NCBI GenBank assembly: GCA_025062195.1
Contig: JANXAS010000011.1
Span: forward strand, 6,149 to 70,148
Direction: 5' to 3'
Source: Armatimonadota bacterium
GTDB taxonomy: Bacteria; Armatimonadota; Fervidibacteria; Fervidibacterales; Thermosaccharophagaceae
Length of the DNA stretch: 64,000 nucleotides
Shown: positions 1,994-53,497 of the stretch, in pieces
How positions within the stretch are numbered: the stretch's first letter is position 1
Layout: each line of letters begins with the position of its first letter
Position numbers and translations under genes: made by a program
Notes under the pieces: generated by a model
The model's database searches: none
What the model was told of the DNA's origin: nothing
Seen by the model: only the letters and a program-made list of their open reading frames with translations

Positions 1994-2043
1994 GGGCTCA
2001 TATTTCAAGGCGACATCTGAACTCTTAGCTATGTAGCGCCGTG

Positions 2044-2116
2044 GCTTGTCCACTGCGGTCGCTCAGCTTCCGCCACCCAAAATGATGGCGCCGCATGATG
2101 GTTTTTGTCGCCTCGC
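2044..2116 (+). repeat. Dispersed repeat family Rep-2, copy a
   Basis: GCTTGTCCAC-TGCGGTCG left end matches the reverse complement of copy c (40726-40804). The TTTTGTCGCCTCGC right end is identical to copy b. Internal hairpin CGCCA/TGGCG. Lies 51 nt after the radical SAM stop. Confidence 0.6.
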
Positions 2117-2423
2117 AATTCAAATGCCGGTATGGAAGGCATGTTTTGAAAGTTTTCAAATGTGCCTGCTAAGGCTATTTGCTGCAAAGCTTACCGGGTG
2201 CTTGTTTAGGTTAAAGGCTCTTCAATGAGCCAAAAAGGCGGGCAGAGATTGAGAGGAATCTTTGAGGCATTGTGAGGATGGGGTTCTCGCCGAACAAAAT
2301 TCGAGCAAGCTGGCGATGGGAAGTAGACAGATAGGTAGCATTGTAGCCCACTTGCAAGTCCGCCATCTTCAAAACTCTTCTCCAACAACATTTTGAGCAA
2401 ATAGCACCTGTCAAATTGTAGCC

Positions 2424-3608
2424 TCAGCGTCCATGACAAACCGCACAAGTCTCCTCGCGCTTGTGACACTTGAAGCAAACTGACTTTGGATCAAAGCTCG
2501 CCACATCCTTGTGCTTGAGCGCAAACCCCTCAGGGTGTGGCAACGGAACACCGTGACAAGCATCGCAAGCATTCTTCCCGTGACAGCGCTCACAAATCTT
2601 TTGCTCTTCCTTTTTCACCTTAGCATGCGCTCTTCGGTAATCTTTTGGGTGCGGCATCGGCAAGCCATGACATGCATCACACCAAGATTGTGCATGACAG
2701 CGCATGCAAAGACTTGCGTTAATCTTTGCCTCGTTGTGCTTGCGCTCATAGCCCTTTGGATGGGGCATCCTGATGCCATGACATGAATCGCAGAAGGAAC
2801 TTGAATGGCACATAAGGCAATTCTGCCCAGCAAGGAAGAGCTTGCCGTGGCGCTTCATGAAATCGGGCTTGATGTGGGATGATGGTTTTCTGACGATGTG
2901 ACATGAATCACAAAACGAGCGCTCATGGCATTGCAAGCATTGAGTCTCTTTTTTGCGGGCGTGTTCACCATGCTTTGCGGCAAAGCCCTTCACATGGCTG
3001 GATGGTTTGCGCGGCTTGTGGCACAGGTCGCAAAATGCTTCACTATGGCAATCCAGGCACTGCTGTCTATCTTTTGTTTCCTTTGGATGGCGCTCAAGCC
3101 AATCTTGCCCGTGAGTATTCGGCAATGCTGTCTGCGGGCGAGCATGACATAACGAGCATTTCTTTGGCGCACGCTTATCATCGTGGCATTCCAAGCACAC
3201 ATCCATTGGCACAGCGCCATGCTTCGGATATGGCTTGCCCGGCTCTCGCTGCTTGATGTCTCTATGACAATCGCTGCAATGGTCACCCCTCTCAATATGC
3301 TTCATGTGCGAGAATGTAATTCGGTAGGCGCTTTCTCCGAGCGTGATGACGCTGTGGCATTCAAAGCATTCCAAATTAGCGATGTGGCGTAGGCGTTCGC
3401 TTAGAGAGTGTGAGGCTGAAATTCGCTTTGCATTGGTGTAGCGCGCCTCAGCCTCGTAGAGGCGCTTAACATCTCGCTTCACATAGTGCATATGAATCAT
3501 TAGCAGCGCCGATAACAAACTCACTATGACAATCGGAGAAAACATCAGCGCGAGTTTGAAGGACATTATTATAGCCCGCCTCAGCTTCACCGCTTTAACC
3601 CCCGACAC
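2424..3608 (-). CDS. Membrane-anchored 16-haem c-type cytochrome
   Basis: 394-aa ORF (GTG 3608; alternative Met 3566). One N-terminal TM helix. 16 CxxCH motifs account for all 32 Cys. Tandem doubled-CxxCH modules. Confidence 0.85.
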   Translation of the reverse strand: MSGVKAVKLRRAIIMSFKLALMFSPIVIVSLLSALLMIHMHYVKRDVKRLYEAEARYTNAKRISASHSLSERLRHIANLECFECHSVITLGESAYRITFSHMKHIERGDHCSDCHRDIKQREPGKPYPKHGAVPMDVCLECHDDKRAPKKCSLCHARPQTALPNTHGQDWLERHPKETKDRQQCLDCHSEAFCDLCHKPRKPSSHVKGFAAKHGEHARKKETQCLQCHERSFCDSCHIVRKPSSHIKPDFMKRHGKLFLAGQNCLMCHSSSFCDSCHGIRMPHPKGYERKHNEAKINASLCMRCHAQSWCDACHGLPMPHPKDYRRAHAKVKKEEQKICERCHGKNACDACHGVPLPHPEGFALKHKDVASFDPKSVCFKCHKREETCAVCHGR

Positions 3609-12202: not shown

Positions 12203-15055
12203 GTGATGAGAGTGTTTCCTAATGGCATCAAGGTGAGTGCGATATACATGCTCACTTTTCTCTGGTGGCTTGCTATTGCAACGGCACGGGGAGAAGGTGA
12301 AAGCGTCGTGTCAGCTGATGTTGAGAAAGTTTTGGCTGAGTGGAACTTTGAGAGGGTAGGCGACCTTGAGGGATGGCAACCAAACTCGCACATGAAGGAT
12401 GTAAGTGTGAAGGACAGCATACTCAGCTTCGCCACATCTGGCAGTGACCCAATACTTGAGCTTCGCCCGTTGATTGACATTCCAACATCACCATGGCAGG
12501 CGATTGAAATACGGATGCTCGCCACAAAGGATGGCATAGCTGAATTCTTTTGGAGCAACACGACGCAGACCAAGTATGGTGGCTTTGCCCCGGAGAAAAG
12601 CACGCGCTTCTATGTCTATGGCGATGGCAAGTGGCGCACATATCGTGTGACACCGTTTTGGCATCCTGAGGGAAAGATCATCAGGCTGCGATTTGACCCA
12701 TATGATGGTGCATCGTTTTCCATTGACTTTATTCGCGTCGTGCAGCTTAAAGTCCCACATCAGATTGAGGGTGCTGAATTTGAATTCATTGGCACAGACT
12801 GCGCTTGGAGAGCAATTGGCGGGATAAACCTGTCTGCTGGGAAAAGTGGACTGCAAATTAACATTCAGGATGTGCATGGATACCTTATAAGCCCGCCAAT
12901 TTCAATCAATGCCGAAAAGGAAAGCTATATCTCGCTTTGCATGTCTGCAGACAAAGGTGAGGTCGCCACAATTGCATTCGTCTCAGAGAAGTCGCACCAC
13001 CTTCAAATCTTCACCTTCCCAATAGTCGCCGATGGGAAGGAGCGCACATACACATTGGACATGCTCTCATCGCCGCGCTGGCAAGGAAGGATTATAGCTG
13101 TTGGGCTTCGTCCGAGTGACAAAATTGGCGCAAAATGCATTTTGAGATGGGTGCGCGTTACGGACAAGCCCGTCGGGGAGCCACACATCGCAATAACATC
13201 TTTTGCTCCGGAAGATGCGCCTCTCAGGGTCGGCAAACCAGCTACGCTTACGGCGATCATTGCTAACAGGGGTGGAGAGCCTGCGGTAAATGTGCAGACA
13301 TCGCTTGAGCTGCCAAAGGGTGCACGCACAATCGAGGTTGATGTAAGCGCTGCGGGCGTGACTAAGAAACCCAATGGCACAATTGCATTGACCAAACTCT
13401 CCTTCGGTGATTTAGCTATATGGCGCTGGAGGGTGATTTCAGAGAAACCCATAACAGGTGAGGCGAGGCTTCATGTGAAAGCTCTTAACGCACCACCTGT
13501 AACGACAACGCTAAAATTCTCATTCAAGCCCGCACTTAAGCTTCCAAGGGCAAGTTATGTCCCTGAACCGAAGCCTGTCCGTGGCAAGTATGATGTTGGT
13601 GTTTACTACTTCCCGGGCTGGAAGACAGCATCGCAATGGATGCCGATAATCAGTTTCCCCGAAAGGAAGCCGTTGCTTGGTTGGTATCGTGAGGGCGATC
13701 CCGAAGTCGCCGATTGGCACATCAAGTGGGCTGTTGAGCATGGCATTACCTTCTTCGCCTACGACTGGTATTGGGTGCGTGGAGCAAGGCAGTTGGAACA
13801 TGCCTTACATGATGGCTACATGAGGGCACGCTATAGACACATGCTCAAGTTTTGCCTGCTTTGGGCAAACCACAACCCGCCAAATACATCATCGCTTGAA
13901 GACTGCATAGCTGTAACTCGTTTTTGGATTGAGCATTACTTTCGCCGCCCCGAATATTTGACCATAGATGGAAAGCCAGTCGTTATCATCTTCAGCACAC
14001 ACCGATTGAGCGAAGACTTGGGCACTTATGAAAATGTGCGCAAGGCATTTGATGCCATGAGGGGTGAATGCATCAAAGCCGGCTTACAAGGGCTTTACAT
14101 CATTGCGTGCGTCGGCAACGCTGCACACGCAGAGATGGCAGCCAAAGAGGGATATGACGCTGTGACGGCTTACAATTGGCCAACACTTGGCATGCCGCCA
14201 AGTTTGAGGCGAGCCTCGTTTGACAGCCTAATAGAAGCATACCGCAGGAATTGGGAGGACATAGCAGTTAGGAGTCCGATACCGCTCATGCTCCCAATAA
14301 GCGGCGGTTGGGATAGCCGACCTTGGCACGGTGAGAATGCATTAGTGCGATATGGACGGACGCCCGAAAACTTTAGACGCCACTTGCAGGATGCAAAACG
14401 CATGCTTGAAGACGAGCGCTTTAAAGGCAAGCTATTGCCGATGGTGCTGATTGAAGCATGGAATGAGTGGGGTGAGGGCAGCTACATTGAGCCGCATGCC
14501 GAATTCGCTTTCGGTTACCTTGACGCTATACGAGAAGTGTTTACCGACGCCCCAAAGGAGCATGCCGATATAACCCCATCGGATGCTGGGTTAGGTCCAT
14601 ATGAAGTAACTTTTTTGCCGAGCAGGGCTGCATGGGAGTTTGAACAGGATGACGAGGGTTGGGCTAACACAATGGGCATGAGGAACATAACTGTGATTGG
14701 CAAAGCTATCTGTGCTATCACAACATCAAACGACCCGGCGTTTTTCGGACCACCAATTCGTGTTGAGGTGGGTCAGTTTAAGTTCGTCCATTTAAGGATG
14801 CGTTTAAGAAGGTTAGATGGCGTCCACTTCAAAGACATAGGTCAGGTCTTTTGGCGCACAGCAACGATACCGGAGAGCGAGGTGACAAGTGTCAGGTTTG
14901 AAGTAATTGGCGATGGCGAGTGGCATGATTATGTGCTCAATGTCTCTGAGAATGTTCGTTGGCGCGGTATCATAACACGCCTTCGCCTTGACCCATGCAC
15001 TCAGCCCGATGTGCATGTTGAAGTTGACTTCATCAAGCTTATTGGTGAAAGGTGA
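12203..15055 (+). CDS. Secreted multidomain protein with central GH99-like/WbsX-like domain flanked by three copies of an uncharacterised ~140-aa module
   Basis: 950 aa with a hydrophobic leader. The central block GVYYFPGWK...KPLLGWYREGDPEV...HGITFFAYDWYW resembles the WbsX/GH99-like family. Modules at aa ~45-185, ~190-320 and ~800-950 share W.FE..EGW, I.(I/L)RM, GDG.W..Y, LR.DP and DFI(R/K). Confidence 0.55.
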   Translation: MMRVFPNGIKVSAIYMLTFLWWLAIATARGEGESVVSADVEKVLAEWNFERVGDLEGWQPNSHMKDVSVKDSILSFATSGSDPILELRPLIDIPTSPWQAIEIRMLATKDGIAEFFWSNTTQTKYGGFAPEKSTRFYVYGDGKWRTYRVTPFWHPEGKIIRLRFDPYDGASFSIDFIRVVQLKVPHQIEGAEFEFIGTDCAWRAIGGINLSAGKSGLQINIQDVHGYLISPPISINAEKESYISLCMSADKGEVATIAFVSEKSHHLQIFTFPIVADGKERTYTLDMLSSPRWQGRIIAVGLRPSDKIGAKCILRWVRVTDKPVGEPHIAITSFAPEDAPLRVGKPATLTAIIANRGGEPAVNVQTSLELPKGARTIEVDVSAAGVTKKPNGTIALTKLSFGDLAIWRWRVISEKPITGEARLHVKALNAPPVTTTLKFSFKPALKLPRASYVPEPKPVRGKYDVGVYYFPGWKTASQWMPIISFPERKPLLGWYREGDPEVADWHIKWAVEHGITFFAYDWYWVRGARQLEHALHDGYMRARYRHMLKFCLLWANHNPPNTSSLEDCIAVTRFWIEHYFRRPEYLTIDGKPVVIIFSTHRLSEDLGTYENVRKAFDAMRGECIKAGLQGLYIIACVGNAAHAEMAAKEGYDAVTAYNWPTLGMPPSLRRASFDSLIEAYRRNWEDIAVRSPIPLMLPISGGWDSRPWHGENALVRYGRTPENFRRHLQDAKRMLEDERFKGKLLPMVLIEAWNEWGEGSYIEPHAEFAFGYLDAIREVFTDAPKEHADITPSDAGLGPYEVTFLPSRAAWEFEQDDEGWANTMGMRNITVIGKAICAITTSNDPAFFGPPIRVEVGQFKFVHLRMRLRRLDGVHFKDIGQVFWRTATIPESEVTSVRFEVIGDGEWHDYVLNVSENVRWRGIITRLRLDPCTQPDVHVEVDFIKLIGER

Positions 15056-19165: not shown

Positions 19166-19438
19166 AGGGTTTATACCGTCTCAAAAAATGGTGTGTAACC
19201 CGACTTGCTGTAGTAGGGCAACCGAACAAATGAGCAGCGGACAATGAATCCTTCTTGTGTGTAGTTTCTTTCGCCACAAAATTTGTTCAAAAATCTTTTG
19301 GATGGATGTGGTCTGCCTGGAAAAAGTCATAATGAAAACAACGATGAAGGTGGCTTAATAGCTGCCCTCGCCTTCAGGTGCACAACTTCTTAATCAATAG
19401 AGCAGCGTTAGCAATTTGCTGGCTTTCGGCTCGCAGCA

Positions 19439-20780
19439 ATGGCGCAAGTTATCCGTGGAGAGGTGAGCATGAGCTGGTCAATGGAGGCATATTCAAATAA
19501 GCATTCAAGGCGTCAGTTCATTAAATCATCGGCTGCCTCAGCAATTGTTTTGGGGGTGCTTAAAACAAGCGAGGCTGGTGTGAATATTGGTGGAAGTGAC
19601 ATCATACGAGTTGGCGTCATAGGTTGCGGTGGAAGAGGGATTGGCGCTGCAGTTGATGCTATGGCTGCGGACGAAGGTGTGCGTATAGTTGCACTTGCAG
19701 ACTTGTTTGAGAGCCGAGTGCGTGCTGGGATGAAGCTGCTAAAAGAGCGCTATCCTAAGCAAGCCATCGTTGATGATGCTCATTGCTTTGTCGGTTTGAT
19801 GCATGCAAGCATGTGATTGAATGCAGCGATGTTGTCCTAATTGCATGCGCTTCAAAGTTTCACCCGCTTCATGTGCGCGCTGCTGTTGAGTCCGGCAAAC
19901 ATGTCTTTGTTGAAAAGCCACCAGCGATAGACCCGGCAGGGATTAAAATGCTTGCCGAAGCTTGCGTTTAGCCAAGAGGAAAGGGCTTTGCATTGTCTCA
20001 GGTCTGCAAAGCCGCTATCACACTGGGTATCGTGAAGCTGTTCAGAGAGTGCATGATGGTGCTATTGGTGACATCGTGGCAATTGAGGAAAATTTTCTCC
20101 GCTCACCTTACGGAGTTGTGCACCGCCAACCATGGATGAATGAGTTGCAATTCCAGCTGATGAATTGGTATCATTTCAGCTGGCTGTCGGGTGATGATGT
20201 CGTTCAATCGCTTGTTCACAACCTTGATAGAGCGACTTGGGTGCTGAGGGAACAAGCGCCAATCAGGGCGCATGGCATGGGAGGGCGTTCTGCATGGTTT
20301 GAGGAAGCCGCCGGAAATGTGTTTGACCATCACGCAGTCGTTTATGAATACGCTAATGGGGTGCGAGTTTATGCATTCTGCAGGACACAGGTCGGGTGCC
20401 ACAATGAAGTCTCAAGCAAGATATTTGGAACGAAGGGCACTTGCTACTTGACGGATATGCGCATTGAGGGCGAGAAGAAATGGCGCTATGCCGGTCCGCC
20501 ATGCAATCCATACCTTGAAGAGCACAAAGCATTGTTTAGTGCCATACGCTCCGGCAAACCAATCGTCAACGATTACATGGTGCGTTCAACGCTTGTCTCC
20601 ATAATGGGGCAAATTGCATGTTACACTGGTCAGCGCATCACATGGGAGCAAATTGAGAAGTCGGACTTCTACTATCCGCCGAAGCCTGAGGACTGCAGCT
20701 TTGAGATGGAGCCGCCGGTGAAGCCGGGGCGAGATGGTCTTTACTCGGTGCCTATACCCGGTGTTACGAAACTTATTTGA
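19439..20780 (+). pseudogene. Gfo/Idh/MocA-family oxidoreductase (Tat signal) disrupted by two frameshifts
   Basis: Three consecutive ORFs (19439-19816, 19783-19971, 19962-20780) in frames 2, 1 and 0 read as one protein: SRRQFIKS leader, VGVIGCGGRG, HVFVEKP and a C-terminal domain. The shifts lie near 19795-19797 (T run) and 19965-19970. Confidence 0.75.
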
Positions 20781-20898
20781 GTGTTAACAGGTTGTTGAGT
20801 TACAATTTGAGGCGGTGTGACTGTCACCGAACCAAACAGCGGCATGCTTGCCACATATGGTCTTCCTTCGCCGCTCATGAAAGGCAATCTACAGCCTT

Positions 20899-20963
20899 GA
20901 TGGTTCTAAACGGTCGTCGCCTGTAACTGGCGGCGCTAAATGGTGGGACTTTTGTCGCCTCGC
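20899..20963 (+). repeat. Dispersed repeat family Rep-2, copy b
   Basis: GATGGTTCTAAACGGTCG...CGTCGCC/GGCGGCG hairpin...GCTAAATGGTGGGACTTTTGTCGCCTCGC. Aligns along its length with the reverse complement of copy d. Lies 119 nt after the pseudogene stop. Confidence 0.65.
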
Positions 20964-21021
20964 TTTTAAAAGAGCAATTTGTGGCATCTTGATAAAAGTT
21001 TTTCATGGGCAGGATGTGCAT

Positions 21022-21049
21022 GTTACATTAATTTCTTGAATGGTATAAC
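21022..21049 (+). promoter_or_regulatory. Candidate sigma-70 promoter upstream of the ParB/Srx-like gene
   Basis: GTTACA - 16 nt - TATAAC, about 70 nt upstream of ATG 21122. Pattern match only. Confidence 0.25.
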
Positions 21050-24323: not shown

Positions 24324-24396
24324 GCGATACCGTTAAGAAGCTGTGCAGCCGAATGTAGTGCCACTGTTAAGTCACCACCCCTCAAATTTTCAGTTT

Positions 24397-24495
24397 CGCT
24401 CTTAGCTCAAAAATTTGTCGGTGCACACCTGTTCATACCCCTGGGCTTTATCCAACCGTTGATAAAGAAGCAAGTGAGCGCCAAATTCATTCAAC
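24397..24495 (+). repeat. Dispersed repeat family Rep-1, copy 4 (degenerate hairpin)
   Basis: CGCTCTTAGCTCAAAAATTTG...CTGGGCTTTATCCA...AGTGAGCGCCAAATTCATTC is colinear with copy 3 (53333-53462). Confidence 0.6.
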
Positions 24496-24567
24496 AACTT
24501 ATAGGGCAATGTTCACGCCAAACATGAAAAGGTGAAATTCTGTTGAGCCAAAAGGATATGCAGGGGC

Positions 24568-24591
24568 GCCTTTGGAAAAGGCATTTTTCTT
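24568..24591 (+). terminator. Weak intrinsic-terminator-like hairpin
   Basis: GCCTTT-GGA-AAAGGC (6-bp stem) followed by ATTTTTCTT, about 245 nt downstream of the GH52-like gene. Confidence 0.25.
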
Positions 24592-24724
24592 GCGAGCTAT
24601 TGTTTCTCTGCAAAACAACACCAGTTGCGCTACTTGCAACCACTCAAAAACTAATGCGGCATAGGCATCCTGACCATGAAGGTTTTTTAGCGAGATACCT
24701 TCAAACCTTATGAAGGTTGCTAAC

Positions 24725-28615: not shown

Positions 28616-30292
28616 CTATGGCGATGTCACCATGCACGAGCCCGAAACCGGCGTTGCAATGACATAGCATGGTTCAAAGCCTCTCGGTTCATAATAGCGC
28701 TCGCTCATGACTTCAATGAGCCTTTTCAGGGAATCATCCCTCACCAACGCCATAATACACCCTCCCAAGCCAGCACCGCAAAGCTGTGCACCCAAAACGC
28801 CATCCACCCCGTTTGCAACATCAACCATAAAGTCAATTGATGCTGTGCTACACCTGTAGCTACCTGGTTGGCGCCAAACTTCGCTGCCTTCCGATTCACC
28901 GGCTGGTGACCTTTTGCACGCCTCAATCAACTTTGCAAGATGCGCATCGCTGCACGGGCTTACATATCTCCTCATGTGACCTCTTCTATCCATCTTTGCA
29001 ACTCTATCGCCGTCATGAGATATGTTTATGAACAATCCAAATTCTTCGATTCGTTCCTGAGCGAGCAATTCGGCAGCAAGCCTGCTGCGCTCACATTCGG
29101 AGACGCCAAACAAACAAACGCCCCTTATTGGATAACCCTCTTTTGGCGGAGCATGCATTGAAGCCACTTTAAGTGCACGCTCATGCCACTTCGGTGAAAG
29201 GAGCTTAAGTATTTCCCGAAGCGATGCCCTCAGCGGCAATTCAAGAATCAACCTATAAACATCTGCTGTGCTCCCAACGACCTGAGATCTAATGTCGCTG
29301 AATTGCTTAAGGACACTCTGCAACTCTGGGTGACGTTCCAAGATAAGCATAAAGCCAAATTCGTAGCAAGCAACACGCTGATTAAAGACATCACGGGCAT
29401 TGCCAGCCTTGTGTGCGATTTCAAACGAATGGAGTGCCACCACCTTGTAGCCCTTTGGGAAGGGATTGTAGCTGACCGAAAGCGGATTCATTGTTATGTG
29501 CGATACATAACCAGCTTTTGCATACTTTATTGCTGCATGGTCACCTGCGCCACCCCTTGTGCCGACATACCATTCACCGTAACCGCAAAGCCTGACAAAT
29601 TCCTCACGGTCAAGTTGAAGTCCATTGAGTGATAGCAATGCCTCGCTTGCCAGCATGAACAGCGCTGACGATGATGCAAGCCCAGCTGATGGTGGCACAT
29701 CACCATAAACCACGATATCCATCCCTTTAAGGCTCGGGCATAAGGAACCGTCATGCAAACGGAAACGCTCCTGCAACATGACTGCGGCACCTTTGATGTA
29801 ATCGGTCCAATGAATCGGCTCGCCGCTTTTTCGTCTCTCCTCAACTTGCGCCATCGTCCAACTGTCCCATTCAGAAATGTTCATGAGCTTGCGTGGTGGG
29901 AGAGATTCCCCGATCTTGAATTGCCTCGGCGTGTATTTGTGAGCTTCAACATTATGTGCGCTTATGACATCATCCTTTCTTGGGGCAGCAACTGCAATGA
30001 GTTCGGCACTGAGAGCGATTGGATTAACTGCACCGCCACGATGGTCAATATGCCGCCCCATAAGGTTTAACCTTCCGGGGGCTCTCACAAGTATGATTTT
30101 CCTCCTCAGTCCCAGGAGGCTCAAAGCAGCCTCTAAGACGAGCTTGAAGGCGTGTCGTCGCTCGTTCAACAATCCTTCATCAGCACCATAGAACATTTGC
30201 ATATGGCTTTTGAACCTGTGCCAGTCGGAGACGAAATTAAGCCACTGTTCCACCGTCATGAGCTTCGTCATCCACATCATCACTTCACTCAC
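28616..30292 (-). CDS. GHMP kinase, galactokinase-like, long form
   Basis: 558 aa. GRHIDHRGG (galactokinase signature-like), GDVPPSAGLASSSAL GHMP motif and C-terminal GAGLGGC. The start is uncertain: GTG 30292, or ATG 30280/30277 behind AAGGTG. Confidence 0.7.
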   Translation of the reverse strand: MSEVMMWMTKLMTVEQWLNFVSDWHRFKSHMQMFYGADEGLLNERRHAFKLVLEAALSLLGLRRKIILVRAPGRLNLMGRHIDHRGGAVNPIALSAELIAVAAPRKDDVISAHNVEAHKYTPRQFKIGESLPPRKLMNISEWDSWTMAQVEERRKSGEPIHWTDYIKGAAVMLQERFRLHDGSLCPSLKGMDIVVYGDVPPSAGLASSSALFMLASEALLSLNGLQLDREEFVRLCGYGEWYVGTRGGAGDHAAIKYAKAGYVSHITMNPLSVSYNPFPKGYKVVALHSFEIAHKAGNARDVFNQRVACYEFGFMLILERHPELQSVLKQFSDIRSQVVGSTADVYRLILELPLRASLREILKLLSPKWHERALKVASMHAPPKEGYPIRGVCLFGVSECERSRLAAELLAQERIEEFGLFINISHDGDRVAKMDRRGHMRRYVSPCSDAHLAKLIEACKRSPAGESEGSEVWRQPGSYRCSTASIDFMVDVANGVDGVLGAQLCGAGLGGCIMALVRDDSLKRLIEVMSERYYEPRGFEPCYVIATPVSGSCMVTSP

Positions 30293-30390
30293 ACCTTTTT
30301 AAGCCCTCAATGTCTAAGCCATATTTGCAAGACTTTTGTCTACCGTGTAGCGAGCGAATTAGGTGGCGAGAACACCGTGAATGATTCAAG

Positions 30391-30422
30391 GCGGGTGGAT
30401 AAAGCCCACCCGCATTTTCTTC
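30391..30422 (+). terminator. Intrinsic-terminator-like hairpin in the GHMP-kinase/fur divergent region
   Basis: Perfect 8-bp GC-rich stem GCGGGTGG/CCACCCGC with a 7-nt loop, followed by ATTTTCTTC. Plus-strand polarity only. Confidence 0.4.
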
Positions 30423-30648
30423 AGGTGCATTCCGTGCACCATGCTGCTCACGATGCCCGCATTTTTACCCATCATAACTGCATCAAACCAAGCTGTTCAA
30501 CAGAAAGCGCTGGCTTTCGGTAATGCGAACATCCCCAACGGCGCAGAGCAGCATCGGCATCCTCCCAGAGAAGCCCTCCAATGGCAATCCATTAAAGCTG
30601 TAAAGTCATCCGGGCAAGCCACTGTGTCGCTCTCAACTGCAATCAGCC

Positions 30649-30689
30649 GGACACCAATTTATAGCATGCGTCATAATTGCATTTGCTAT
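30649..30689 (+). promoter_or_regulatory. Candidate fur promoter with overlapping imperfect palindrome (possible autoregulatory operator)
   Basis: GGACAC - 17 nt - CATAAT. The nested inverted repeat ATAGCATGC...GCAT..TGCTAT (30661-30689) overlaps the -10 element and the first ATG. Confidence 0.2.
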
Positions 30690-32136: not shown

Positions 32137-32319
32137 TCCCCGCATGGCTTTCCCATCACCCTGCACAGAAACAGAAAATGCCGCAAAACTGGCTTTTGAC
32201 TGGCTGCTCAGGAATTAGCCCTCAACTCAGGAGTTGGCATTCAACTTTAAAGTTGCCACAACTTGGGATGCGCCGCCAAAATGCGAATGACAATAATTTG
32301 GTAAGCGCTTTTTTCACAA

Positions 32320-32510
32320 CCATGCTATGGGCTTTAGCCCATAGCCACTGACGAAACCTCTAAGCGCCGTCTTTAGACAGCGATGAAAATTCTCGCCGAA
32401 TCAATTTGGCGAGAATTTGCTTCGTCATCAAACACTGGCTAAAGCCAGTGGCATGGATAGCTAAGCGCTGAATACGAACCAGCAAACTTTTGAGTAAAGA
32501 GCGCTCACAT
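32320..32510 (-). repeat. Dispersed repeat family Rep-1, copy 1 (most complete; 137-bp core with 38-nt terminal inverted repeats)
   Basis: Left arm 32320-32357 against the reverse complement of right arm 32419-32456 gives 26/38 identity. Each arm holds its own hairpin around GGCTTTAGCC (32324-32345 and 32433-32450). Central perfect 11-bp stem 32387-32397/32408-32418. Flanking box CAAACTTTTGAGTAAAGAG at 32483-32501. Confidence 0.75.
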
Positions 32511-32605
32511 TAATGTTTGGCTAAAAGCAGCTGCAATATGATGTCCATCTGCGCCGTGATGGCACTATAACTTGCTCCGTGCATTACTGCAAACCTTTTG
32601 GGGTA

Positions 32606-32614
32606 GTGCTACAA
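32606..32614 (+). promoter_or_regulatory. Candidate extended -10 promoter element (TGcTACAAT) upstream of the kinase-vWA module
   Basis: TGCTACAAT matches TGnTAnAAT. It would give a ~210-nt leader before ATG 32833. Pattern match only. Confidence 0.2.
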
Positions 32615-32832
32615 TCACGACTGATGCAGTTTTGAGGAGCACAGCGGAAGCAATGGCTTGCACAAATAAGACGCACGAGGACGGCGAGAAAAAATTATGT
32701 CTGCCTAACACTCTCTGATGGATACACTGGTTGCAAGGTGAGACTACTTGACAGATGAGGACATCACAGCTGGTGCGGGTAAAGCGAAATCTCTTTAGTC
32801 TTCTCCGAGCTTTGGAAGGTGATTAAACTGGC

Positions 32833-36309: not shown

Positions 36310-36508
36310 AATGCCCGACAAACTCTGCCATGATAATCAGCGGGTTAAAAACTGCGGCGAGCTTTACTGGTTTTTTCCAAAAGGACAAGTAACTTGTTGA
36401 CTGCCTATGCTTGTATCACTTGCTGCATTCGCACCATCATTGCTTTTAAGAGATGTAAAACTTCCGCCGGGTTGTTTCATATAGGGAATCCATGTGAGGT
36501 GAAAGCAA

Positions 36509-40605: not shown

Positions 40606-40725
40606 GCGTTTGTGCTCACGAGGCTCATCAAACTCAACTTCTACTTCTGGGTCACCTGTAAAGCTTTTGCTGTTGTCATGCCATTTCAAAAATTCTCTAA
40701 GCAACATGACAGCCGTTTGAATCAC

Positions 40726-40804
40726 GACAAAAACTCCCACCATGTAGCATCGCCGCTTGTGGGCGACGGGATTTAAAGAATTTAAACGACCGTTGTGGAC
40801 AAGC
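40726..40804 (-). repeat. Dispersed repeat family Rep-2, copy c
   Basis: GACAAAAACTCCCACCATGTAGC...TCGCC/GGCGA hairpin...(17-nt insertion)...AAACGACCGTTGTGGACAAGC. Lies 121 nt after the DUF4838-like stop. Confidence 0.65.
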
Positions 40805-40978
40805 TGCGATGCCGCATGGGCTTGATGTCACCTTAATTTCTGAAAACGGAGTTAATGTGCGAGGACAGATAGGATGCCATTGCGAGTTGACATGGCGATG
40901 CAAATGAGGCAAGCTACTTTTTGCGGGTGAATTTTAAACTGTCGCATGTTGTAATTTGGCGAAGGTGATACAGCTGCT

Positions 40979-45136: not shown

Positions 45137-45502
45137 TGGTGAGCATATACCAAAAACGAAAATGAAAGCGGCTTGAAAGTTGCCCTCACATTTGGCTATG
45201 TAACTTTTTGAACAGTTGTTGGGCAAGCGGTAATGTTTCGTTGGGGTGGTTGAAAGCCCGCCATAAAATCACCCCAAAAACAAGTGACGCAAAACGGTGC
45301 GAATGATAAGAATTGATAAAAATGGCGAATCCGAGCTCTCTTTGCTGCAAGCCTTGCTTGTTAGGTTTGTATTTAGCCATGAAGCATAAGCGGAGGCGCG
45401 TTAAGTTGGTGCAAAGTGCAATGTTATCATTTTGCTTGCATTTTGCGCTCGCTTCGCGCTCCGCACTCACTTTGATGGCACTGCGCTTTTCTTCGTGCCT
45501 TA

Positions 45503-45536
45503 CTAAGAACCAACAAACTTTTGAGTAAAGAGTGAC
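45503..45536 (-). repeat. Dispersed repeat family Rep-1, copy 2 (partial)
   Basis: AACCAACAAACTTTTGAGTAAAGAGTGA is 25/28 identical to 32476-32503. A diverged continuation may reach about 45420. A GCTTTAGCC box lies at 45553-45561. Confidence 0.55.
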
Positions 45537-45706
45537 TCCGAGAGTATAAGGAGCTTTAGCCAAGAACAAAAGTTTTCGTGTCTTTAAACTTTCATGCTGA
45601 AGCTGCCGCCCAAATGCGTCGTTTAAATGTGAGTGGTGCTTGCGGCTTAACAGCCGCCGCTATATTCGCTGCGTAAGTTCAGTTTGGAAAACGCTTACCC
45701 GAGGGA

Positions 45707-52665: not shown

Positions 52666-52792
52666 TTTGCGGTATTTTCGCCGCTCAGAAATGGTGTCAC
52701 TTTTGCGAACACTGCTGAATGATGCGGCGCAATATGCATCTTGCCCGAGATTCTGTTGGCTTGAGGGCATAAGCATTTTTTAACGCCACTAT

Positions 52793-52851
52793 GACAGAAA
52801 CTGCCACCCTGTAGCGTTGCTCCTTGCAGGCAACGGTCGTTTGTAACTATC
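52793..52851 (-). repeat. Dispersed repeat family Rep-2, copy d
   Basis: GACAGAAACTGCCACCCTGTAGCG...CGTTGC/GCAACG hairpin...GTCGTTTGTAACTATC. Colinear with the reverse complement of copy b. Lies 128 nt after the waaA stop. Confidence 0.65.
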
Positions 52852-53332
52852 AAAATTGCCACATGTCCTTCATGGGCGAGGTGAAACCTAACAGCCATCG
52901 GATTTTTAGGGCATGACAGTAGCTCTGCCCTCCGAGGTTATACAATTCCAAGAAATTAGTGTGGCGTGGGCATAACGCACATGAATGCTTTGTAGGATGC
53001 TTTCGCTGTTGTTTTGCGCTGTCCCTTGCCTACCGAAGTGAACTACCGTCGGCTGAAGCTAATAGTTCACTGCGCCCATTATTTATGTGGGTGGGATTCA
53101 AAGACCATCAGGGATAGACTCTGACGGGTAGGTTAGGGGTATACCATTGGCACTGGTAAGGAATTTATAGTATCCAACCTAACTTATTGCAGAACAAACA
53201 AACGGCTGGGCAACATACCATCCGATTCTTAGGCATTTTTAAGCACAATGCTTCAACTGCTTTTTAGCGTTGCCGAACTTTTTGGACTGAAAATGCTTGC
53301 CAAAATGAACGAACACAAGCATTGAAAAGCCA

Positions 53333-53462
53333 ACTTTGCTCAAAAAAACTTGTTTTCGCTTTTCACACATGCCGCTGGCTTTAGCCAGCGGTTAGTGACG
53401 AATTAGTGAGCGCAGAATTCATTCGGCGAAAAATTTCTGTCGGGGATAAATCCTGACGCTAC
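53333..53462 (+). repeat. Dispersed repeat family Rep-1, copy 3
   Basis: ACTTTGCTCAAAAAAACTTG...CATGCCGCTGGCTTTAGCCAGCGGTTAGTGACGAA...AGTGAGCGCAGAATTCATTCGGCGAAAAATTTC. 8-bp hairpin 53372-53379/53384-53391. Colinear with the reverse complement of copy 1. Confidence 0.7.
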
Positions 53463-53497
53463 ATAATTTGTATGCTGCCTTGGTCTCTGAAATAGTG

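Follow-up and report, generated by a model that had tools for sequence, protein, structure and literature searches.

GTAG-tagged REPs carry an unpaired GTAG at one end of a 6–13-bp imperfect stem-loop, and the degenerate tags GYAG, GYRG, GTRG, GTMG and GTGG are also accepted (PMC3733652). They are found singly or as two inverted units, joined head-to-head or tail-to-tail through a short spacer, and lie outside genes, mainly between convergent or same-direction open reading frames (ORFs) and near stop codons (PMC3733652). Units measure 20–40 bp, are conserved in the tag and palindrome only, and number tens to hundreds per genome, which also encodes a RAYT gene flanked by repeats (PMC3733652). 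The taxa for which a 2013 survey reports GTAG repeats are Proteobacteria, Cyanobacteria, Chloroflexi and the PVC group, Armatimonadota not being among them (PMC3733652), and our literature search found no paper on repeats in Fervidibacteria. Here we describe Rep-2, a family of palindromic repeats in a 64,000-nt stretch of DNA (the window) from an uncultured hot-spring Armatimonadota bacterium whose closest named relatives are Candidatus Fervidibacter and Fervidibacterota.

The original prediction placed four copies of Rep-2 in the window, which we label a, b (the focal copy), c and d and compare on the strand that ends in TTTTTGTC. Written on one strand, each copy consists of AACGRYCG, a 7-bp hairpin and the 23-mer GCTACATGGTGGGAGTTTTTGTC; allowing up to 3 mismatches, this 23-mer had 2 matches in the window, compared with 0 in 100 shuffles. 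Pairwise BLAST between copies was of modest significance (E = 0.002 for b and c, and E = 0.08 for a and b), and we therefore carried out a leave-one-out test, in which an nhmmer profile was built from any three copies and the omitted copy was sought. The omitted copy was the top non-training match each time, apart from a reverse-strand self-match of the palindromic copy c, with E values of 0.014 (a), 1.7e-7 (b), 2.7e-9 (c) and 1.2e-5 (d). This recovery of each copy bears out all four positions: b, c and d are solid, and a is the most divergent yet significant. We conclude that Rep-2 is a real repeat family, with identity among its copies of ~60–77%. A profile of all four copies gave no other match below E ~0.9 over the window. 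We also built a covariance model on a MAFFT alignment of the four cores and scanned the whole window with filters off. This check, of the cmbuild/cmsearch type that had been proposed, recovered the four copies at 53–65 bits together with three weaker units (c-left, e and a-left); the next-best matches in the 64 kb include inverted partners adjoining copies a and c. Two segments suggested as possible degenerate copies (19185–19245 and 36317–36343) were detected neither by nhmmer (E limit 100) nor by the covariance model (E limit 10), and the 5 kb outside the window yielded no Rep-2 unit. The units known from the 69 kb of the genome read, four strong and three weak, are as follows.

2004–2063, minus strand: unit a-left, with a GTAG tag, the inverted partner of a-right (covariance model E = 0.042, full model length)
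2065–2120, plus strand: unit a-right (covariance model 53.2 bits)
20909–20967, plus strand: unit b, the focal unit (covariance model 57.6 bits)
40718–40774, minus strand: unit c-right (covariance model 65.1 bits)
40785–40837, plus strand: unit c-left, the inverted partner of c-right (covariance model E = 0.002)
52785–52841, minus strand: unit d (covariance model 60.2 bits)
53432–53487, plus strand: unit e, a weak fifth locus (covariance model E = 0.015; DNA fold z = −2.1)

A unit spans ~57 nt and comprises AACGRYCG, the 7-bp hairpin, CTAC (GTAG on the other strand), which directly adjoins the 3′ side of the stem, and then ATGGTGGGAGTTTTTGTCRCC. The size had originally been put at ~60–80 nt; copies a and c proved to be inverted dimers of ~117–120 nt. 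The consensus, the ACGRYCGTT box and the different outer boxes of a and c versus b and d are as originally described, and the four listed hairpin arms all check out. The GTGGACAAGC box, ascribed to a and c only, is present in them and corresponds to the loop and stem of the inverted partner. Four units (c, d, a-left and e) carry the tag GTAG, two (a-right and c-left) carry GCGG, and b alone carries TTAG; GCGG fits the degenerate form GYRG, and TTAG fits no published degenerate form. In b, AACGGT is followed by the stem CGTCGCC (20915–20921), the loop TGTAACT, the stem GGCGGCG (20929–20935), the tag CTAA (TTAG on the other strand) and the tail ATGGTGGGACTTTTGTCGCCTCGC. Stem arms and tags are CGCCACC/GATGGCG with CCGC (other strand GCGG) in a-right, CGTCGCC/GGCGATG with CTAC (other strand GTAG) and the tail ATGGTGGGAGTTTTTGTC in c-right, and CGTTGC/GCAACG with CTAC and the tail AGGGTGGCAGTTTCTGTC in d. 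Unit e combines the stem TGTCGGG/CCTGACG and the tag CTAC with a degenerate tail, and the stem of c-left, tagged GCGG, includes four G·T pairs. Hairpin loops are 6–7 nt long. Conservation reaches ~20 nt past the tag and 6–8 nt on the other side, the unpaired ~20-nt tail outside the tag being the best-conserved part. The AACGRYCGTT box is itself palindromic, with a 12-nt opposite-strand match.

The hairpin keeps its position while its sequence differs, as the original prediction held. The 7-bp stem occupies the same MAFFT columns in 4/4 copies, with 26 of 28 cells paired (92.9%), and is in register in 7/7 units. Among the four copies, three of the seven pairs change on both sides (C–G to U–A twice and G–C to A–U once), a level of covariation equalled by 13 of 500 shuffles. 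With all seven units, 93.9% of cells are paired, 5/7 pairs change on both sides and 0/500 shuffles reach the score, although this alignment leans towards structure because the model itself supplied and aligned three of its rows. Selection on the hairpin structure, which had been claimed from the pattern of arms, is supported by these both-side changes but underpowered at 4 to 7 sequences, and a transposase that recognises a single-stranded DNA hairpin would account for the pattern equally well. G·T wobbles in the four strong copies, read by hand, showed no strand bias (2 favour one strand and 2 the other), and so neither strand pairs better than the other, as a DNA palindrome would predict. 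Fold energies were not unusual for the single-strand hairpins of single units; fold stability was unusual for the c dimer alone (z = −3.5 to −3.7).

Loci b, d and e hold one unit each; at a and c, two units form a head-to-head inverted dimer, near-palindromic over ~117–120 nt, with the tags outside and a spacer of ~13–20 nt. Dimer a (2004–2120) is bounded by an 8-bp perfect terminal inverted repeat, AGGCGACA/TGTCGCCT, which closes two hairpins in its DNA fold. Dimer c (40718–40837) folds into one long hairpin; its outer repeat matches in 4 nt only, and units b, d and e have no terminal repeat.

All five loci, a sample too small for statistics, lie between convergent genes (a and d/e) or same-direction genes (b and c), and none between divergent genes. 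The original prediction placed every copy after the stop codon of a plus-strand gene. The distances are correct (51, 119, 121 and 128 nt), but the position is not a defining property, since b lies between a promoter and a ribosome-binding site and e follows a minus-strand gene. Unit e shares its spacer with d and lies 11 nt past the stop codon of era.

Proteins of the window are identical in two Armatimonadota bacterium MAGs, GCA_026418135.1 and GCA_033582355.1 (contig JAVQRV010000014.1, 74.5 kb); the two assemblies are 99.97% identical, and there is therefore no insertion polymorphism between them. More distant relatives, in which flanking proteins are 77–88% identical, keep the gene order, and sites b, c and d lack the element there, with spacers ~240 to 830 nt shorter. 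In ~130 kb of these relatives (with overlaps), neither nhmmer nor the covariance model found a Rep-2 unit. The spacers, and the extra DNA delimited at site c, are as follows.

Site b (GFO / ParB-like): spacer of 341 nt here, ~96 nt in L058–L060 and L061
Site c (DUF4838 / NfeD): spacer of 373 nt here, 125 nt in L057
Site d (kdtA / era): spacer of 832 nt here, 4–5 nt or 14-nt overlap in L050, L053 and L056
40606–40848, minus strand: extra DNA at site c, ~243 nt, absent from L057 (alignment, with boundaries set by stop codons)

At site b, a promoter-like TTGAGT-N18-TACAAT (20777–20806) and the ribosome-binding site are conserved in relatives, which places the ~245 nt of extra DNA, with unit b, within what is presumed to be the ParB-like gene's 5′ leader. 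The extra DNA at site c consists of the c dimer and ~100 nt of other sequence, and the NfeD promoter region is conserved. Direct repeats that seemed to bound the c insertion were rejected as a product of shifted gap placement, one copy being native C-terminal coding sequence.

Six further spacers of the window are enlarged by 200–520 nt compared with the same gene pairs in relatives: 19166–19438 (273 versus 25 nt), 24324–24724 (401 versus 45 nt), 30272–30687 (416 versus 159 nt), 32167–32832 (666 versus 195 nt), 36310–36508 (199 versus 14 nt) and 45137–45706 (570 versus 46 nt). The two segments once suspected of being degenerate copies fall within two of these enlarged spacers, which contain no model-detected unit.

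We found that sequence similarity extends beyond the Rep-2 core into flanking arms at a, b and d.

20811–20908, plus strand: left arm of b, GAGGCGG..ACTGTCA..CATGAAAGG..TTGATGGTT, common to d (local alignment)
52845–52985, minus strand: left arm of d, preceded by a copy of module P (52937–52985); homologue of the b left arm
20983–21049, plus strand: module P, which makes up the right arm of b, GGCATCTTGATAAAAGTTTTTCATGGGCAGGATG..TAATTTCTTGAATGGTATAAC (alignments)
2138–2256, plus strand: right arm of a; its homologue in b is the right arm with module P (local alignment)

The left arms of b and d align locally with p = 0.003 against shuffles, and the ~120 nt common to a and b to the right of the core score 148, compared with a null maximum of 126 in 300 shuffles. 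Homology of the right flanks of a and c was marginal (p = 0.02) and is not relied on. Copies of module P are found at 2138–2200 (a) and 20983–21049 (b), in each case right of the core; at 52937–52985, where the module precedes the left arm of d; and at 24639–24699, where it stands by itself between two convergent genes. Its ~60 nt end in TAATTTCTTGRAATNGTATAAC, which resembles a promoter −10 box; since it recurs at several sites, we class module P as a repeat, which need not function as a promoter. The modules are ordered left arm, core and P at b, and P, left arm and core at d. Rep-2 units are thus one module of lineage-specific mosaic insertions between genes.

Other repeats are found in the same spacers. 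A second palindromic family between genes, probably the one named 'Rep-1' earlier, is present at 32385–32455, 53368–53437 and 24434–24492. Its stem of 8–9 bp encloses a 2-nt loop (CACTGGCT AA AGCCAGTG versus CCGCTGGCT AA AGCCAGCGG, with one pair changed on both sides) and is flanked by TTCGTCA and GCATG, and a nearby CGTC recalls the CGTC-tagged REP superfamily. Further short modules lie in enlarged spacers at 32473–32501, 45504–45532 and 24396–24422 (for example CTTACTAAGAACCAACAAACTTTTGAGTAAAGAG, 93% identity), and 19335–19393 shares a stretch with 45153–45187 and 24333–24376. Such modules, common to the enlarged spacers, form a network of mosaic repeats.

Rep-2 agrees in its features with GTAG-tagged REPs as published (PMC3733652), and on that ground we read it as a GTAG-tagged REP/REPIN-like non-autonomous palindromic element. 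Our confidence in this reading is evenly balanced, because the unit is long, its tail is conserved, the copies are ~60–77% alike, and the 69 kb read gave only four strong and three weak units and no RAYT gene. As in GTAG REPs, REPINs and BIMEs (PMC3733652, PMC3116915), a tag stands beside a stem-loop with alternative complementary stem residues and G·T pairs. Rep-2 likewise combines singletons with head-to-head dimers able to fold into one large hairpin, lies between convergent or same-direction genes near stop codons, and forms mosaics with other short repeats. The resemblance to REP/BIME elements noted in the original prediction is thus supported by the tag, the 7-bp palindrome, the coexistence of singletons and dimers, the location and the mosaic spacers. 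Rep-2 differs from GTAG REPs in its size, ~57 nt against 20–40 nt, and from classical REPs in that the ~20 unpaired bases past the tag are its best-conserved part. Its loops of 6–7 nt are longer than those of most REP families, and its copies are more diverged than those of active REPIN populations.

The units, each with a GTAG-type tag, a 7-bp imperfect stem-loop and ~20 conserved bases past the tag, sit in blocks of additional intergenic DNA, ~240 to 830 nt long, alongside other repeat modules. By analogy with the REP family, the units may be mobile but non-autonomous, in which case a RAYT-type HUH/Y1 transposase encoded elsewhere in the genome would copy them in the form of single-stranded hairpin DNA. 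Effects on transcripts would be secondary and might take the form of a hairpin at an mRNA 3′ end or a longer 5′ leader of the ParB-like gene (21122). In the left end of IS608-type elements, an imperfect hairpin carries a conserved stretch of ~20 nt on one side. Rep-2 resembles such IS200/IS605 subterminal hairpins (PATE-type) in its imperfect hairpin and one-sided ~20-nt conservation, an arrangement that requires no terminal inverted repeats. In contrast to IS200/IS605 derivatives, however, we found no tnpA or tnpB remnant and no conserved 4–5-nt target next to a defined end, and inverted dimers are atypical there.

Rep-2 is possibly a variant of GTAG-tagged REPs, which would not surprise a specialist and opens no long-standing question. 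If confirmed across the genome, it would bring the Armatimonadota (Fervidibacteria-related thermophiles) into the known range of GTAG-tagged REP/REPIN-type elements and account for host spacers 200–800 nt longer than those of relatives; in annotation, such spacers would be flagged as repeat-derived, not regulatory. Insertions would also have remodelled several gene 3′ ends and the ParB-like gene's long 5′ leader.

Rep-2 could instead be a foldback or terminal-inverted-repeat MITE, or its decayed remnants, moved by the DDE transposase of an unseen insertion sequence, with the hairpin as the inner part of long inverted ends. We regard this as rather unlikely. Like Correia, ERIC, RPE and RIME, Rep-2 is a short, non-coding, palindromic insertion between genes that is present in one genome and absent from related ones and may come to lie within a 5′ or 3′ untranslated region. 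The terminal repeat of copy a, the near-palindromes of a and c, the MITE-sized ~240 nt of extra DNA at sites b and c and a high divergence that fits an old, inactive family are what such an element would leave. Clear terminal repeats, however, are confined to copy a, c having no matching outer repeat, and no inverted partner accompanies b, d or e. No target-site duplication is visible at a or c, though the relatives, diverged by 12% or more, place insertion ends only approximately. Nor did we find a parent insertion sequence: there is no transposase, recombinase or RAYT gene in the window or its extensions, no remnant of tnpA or tnpB, and no similarity to Rep-2 in plasmid DNA, including the insertion sequences carried there. 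A MITE would also leave the GTAG-type tag directly beside the stem unexplained.

It is improbable that the units are a structured RNA family (3′-UTR stabilisers, terminators or small RNAs) in which the hairpin and the 23-nt single-stranded tail act as RNA. The hairpin is kept through both-side pair changes and G·U pairs, units sit just past stop codons with a T-rich tail following, and REPs elsewhere do act on mRNA (PMC3733652). In a terminator scan, the hairpin of d on the other strand, followed by GTCGTTTG, scored as terminator-like. Apart from this plus-strand hairpin, the scan scored only a small tail hairpin in b; it found nothing at c, and the sole site at a falls outside the element. 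Scans for intrinsic terminators and sigma-70 promoters thus gave no consistent site across copies. Units occur in both orientations relative to the upstream gene, the T run lies 15 nt from the stem on one strand with only 3 T on the other, single-unit fold energies are not unusual, relatives lack the units at the same sites, and copy b is in a 5′ leader. Rfam 15 gave no match at gathering thresholds, and raising the limit to E = 10 returned noise only, such as miRNA hairpin models on the c palindrome. The 3′-UTR structure family that had been put forward beside REP/BIME elements is therefore weakly supported, as orientation varies, the units are absent in relatives, b is in a 5′ leader and the T-rich run is not beside the stem.

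Equally unlikely, in our estimate, is that the units form the recognition core of an undescribed three-module composite (P, left arm and core) that would have reshaped untranslated regions genome-wide, or that the 23-nt tail and hairpin are a functional RNA- or protein-binding module. The basis for a composite is the module order, which is circularly permuted between b and d; given the promoter-like TATAAC box of module P, such an element would carry its own outward promoter. A binding site for a host protein (nucleoid-associated, or recombination- or partition-like), with the 23-mer as the site and the palindrome incidental, is very unlikely: the strongest conservation is indeed in primary sequence outside the hairpin and the AACGRYCGTT box is itself palindromic, but relatives with the same genes have no copies, the units come with ~240 nt of inserted DNA, and a simple site needs neither inverted dimers nor hairpin covariation.

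We also considered coding potential and a set of candidates picked out by eye. Rep-2 copies share no ORF and have stops in all frames. A leader peptide was rejected: 7-codon ATG..TGA mini-ORFs occur in b and d without a ribosome-binding site and are absent from a and c. A tRNA 3′ end (CTCCCACCA), an integron attC site, a dif/Xer site, and sigma-54 and ECF-sigma promoters were rejected as partner motifs or spacings are missing. A search of sequence collections with the pattern GACARAAN{1,2}TNCCACCNTKTAGC matched 22 stretches in genome contigs, 26 in metagenome contigs and 1 in viral contigs. These are either one conserved Chitinophagaceae locus or isolated chance matches, and none has the hairpin; the Rep-2 family and its host species are therefore absent from the scanned collections. 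The Chitinophagaceae locus, GACAAAACTTTCCACCATTTAGC...ACTAACAATTGTTTGCAA (L003, L005, L007 and others; L024–L049, from Chitinophagaceae and Bacteroidota), is unrelated to Rep-2 and is strikingly conserved in DNA across genera.

Three observations concern genes of the window. The GFO/IDH/MocA oxidoreductase gene (19439–20780) is split into two or three ORFs here, is intact (439 aa) in L058–L060 and is deleted in L061, where a 69-aa ORF is left; it is probably a pseudogene in the host lineage. At 12203–15055, a gene for a 950-aa WbsX-type glycosyltransferase lies between the aldo/keto reductase and GH2 genes, which are direct neighbours in L058–L061, and the WbsX-type gene is therefore a lineage-specific insertion. 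Direct repeats at 2530–2930, with a period of 111–120 nt and 64–71% identity, fall within a minus-strand multihaem cytochrome gene (2424–3608) and are most likely repeated coding haem-binding domains.
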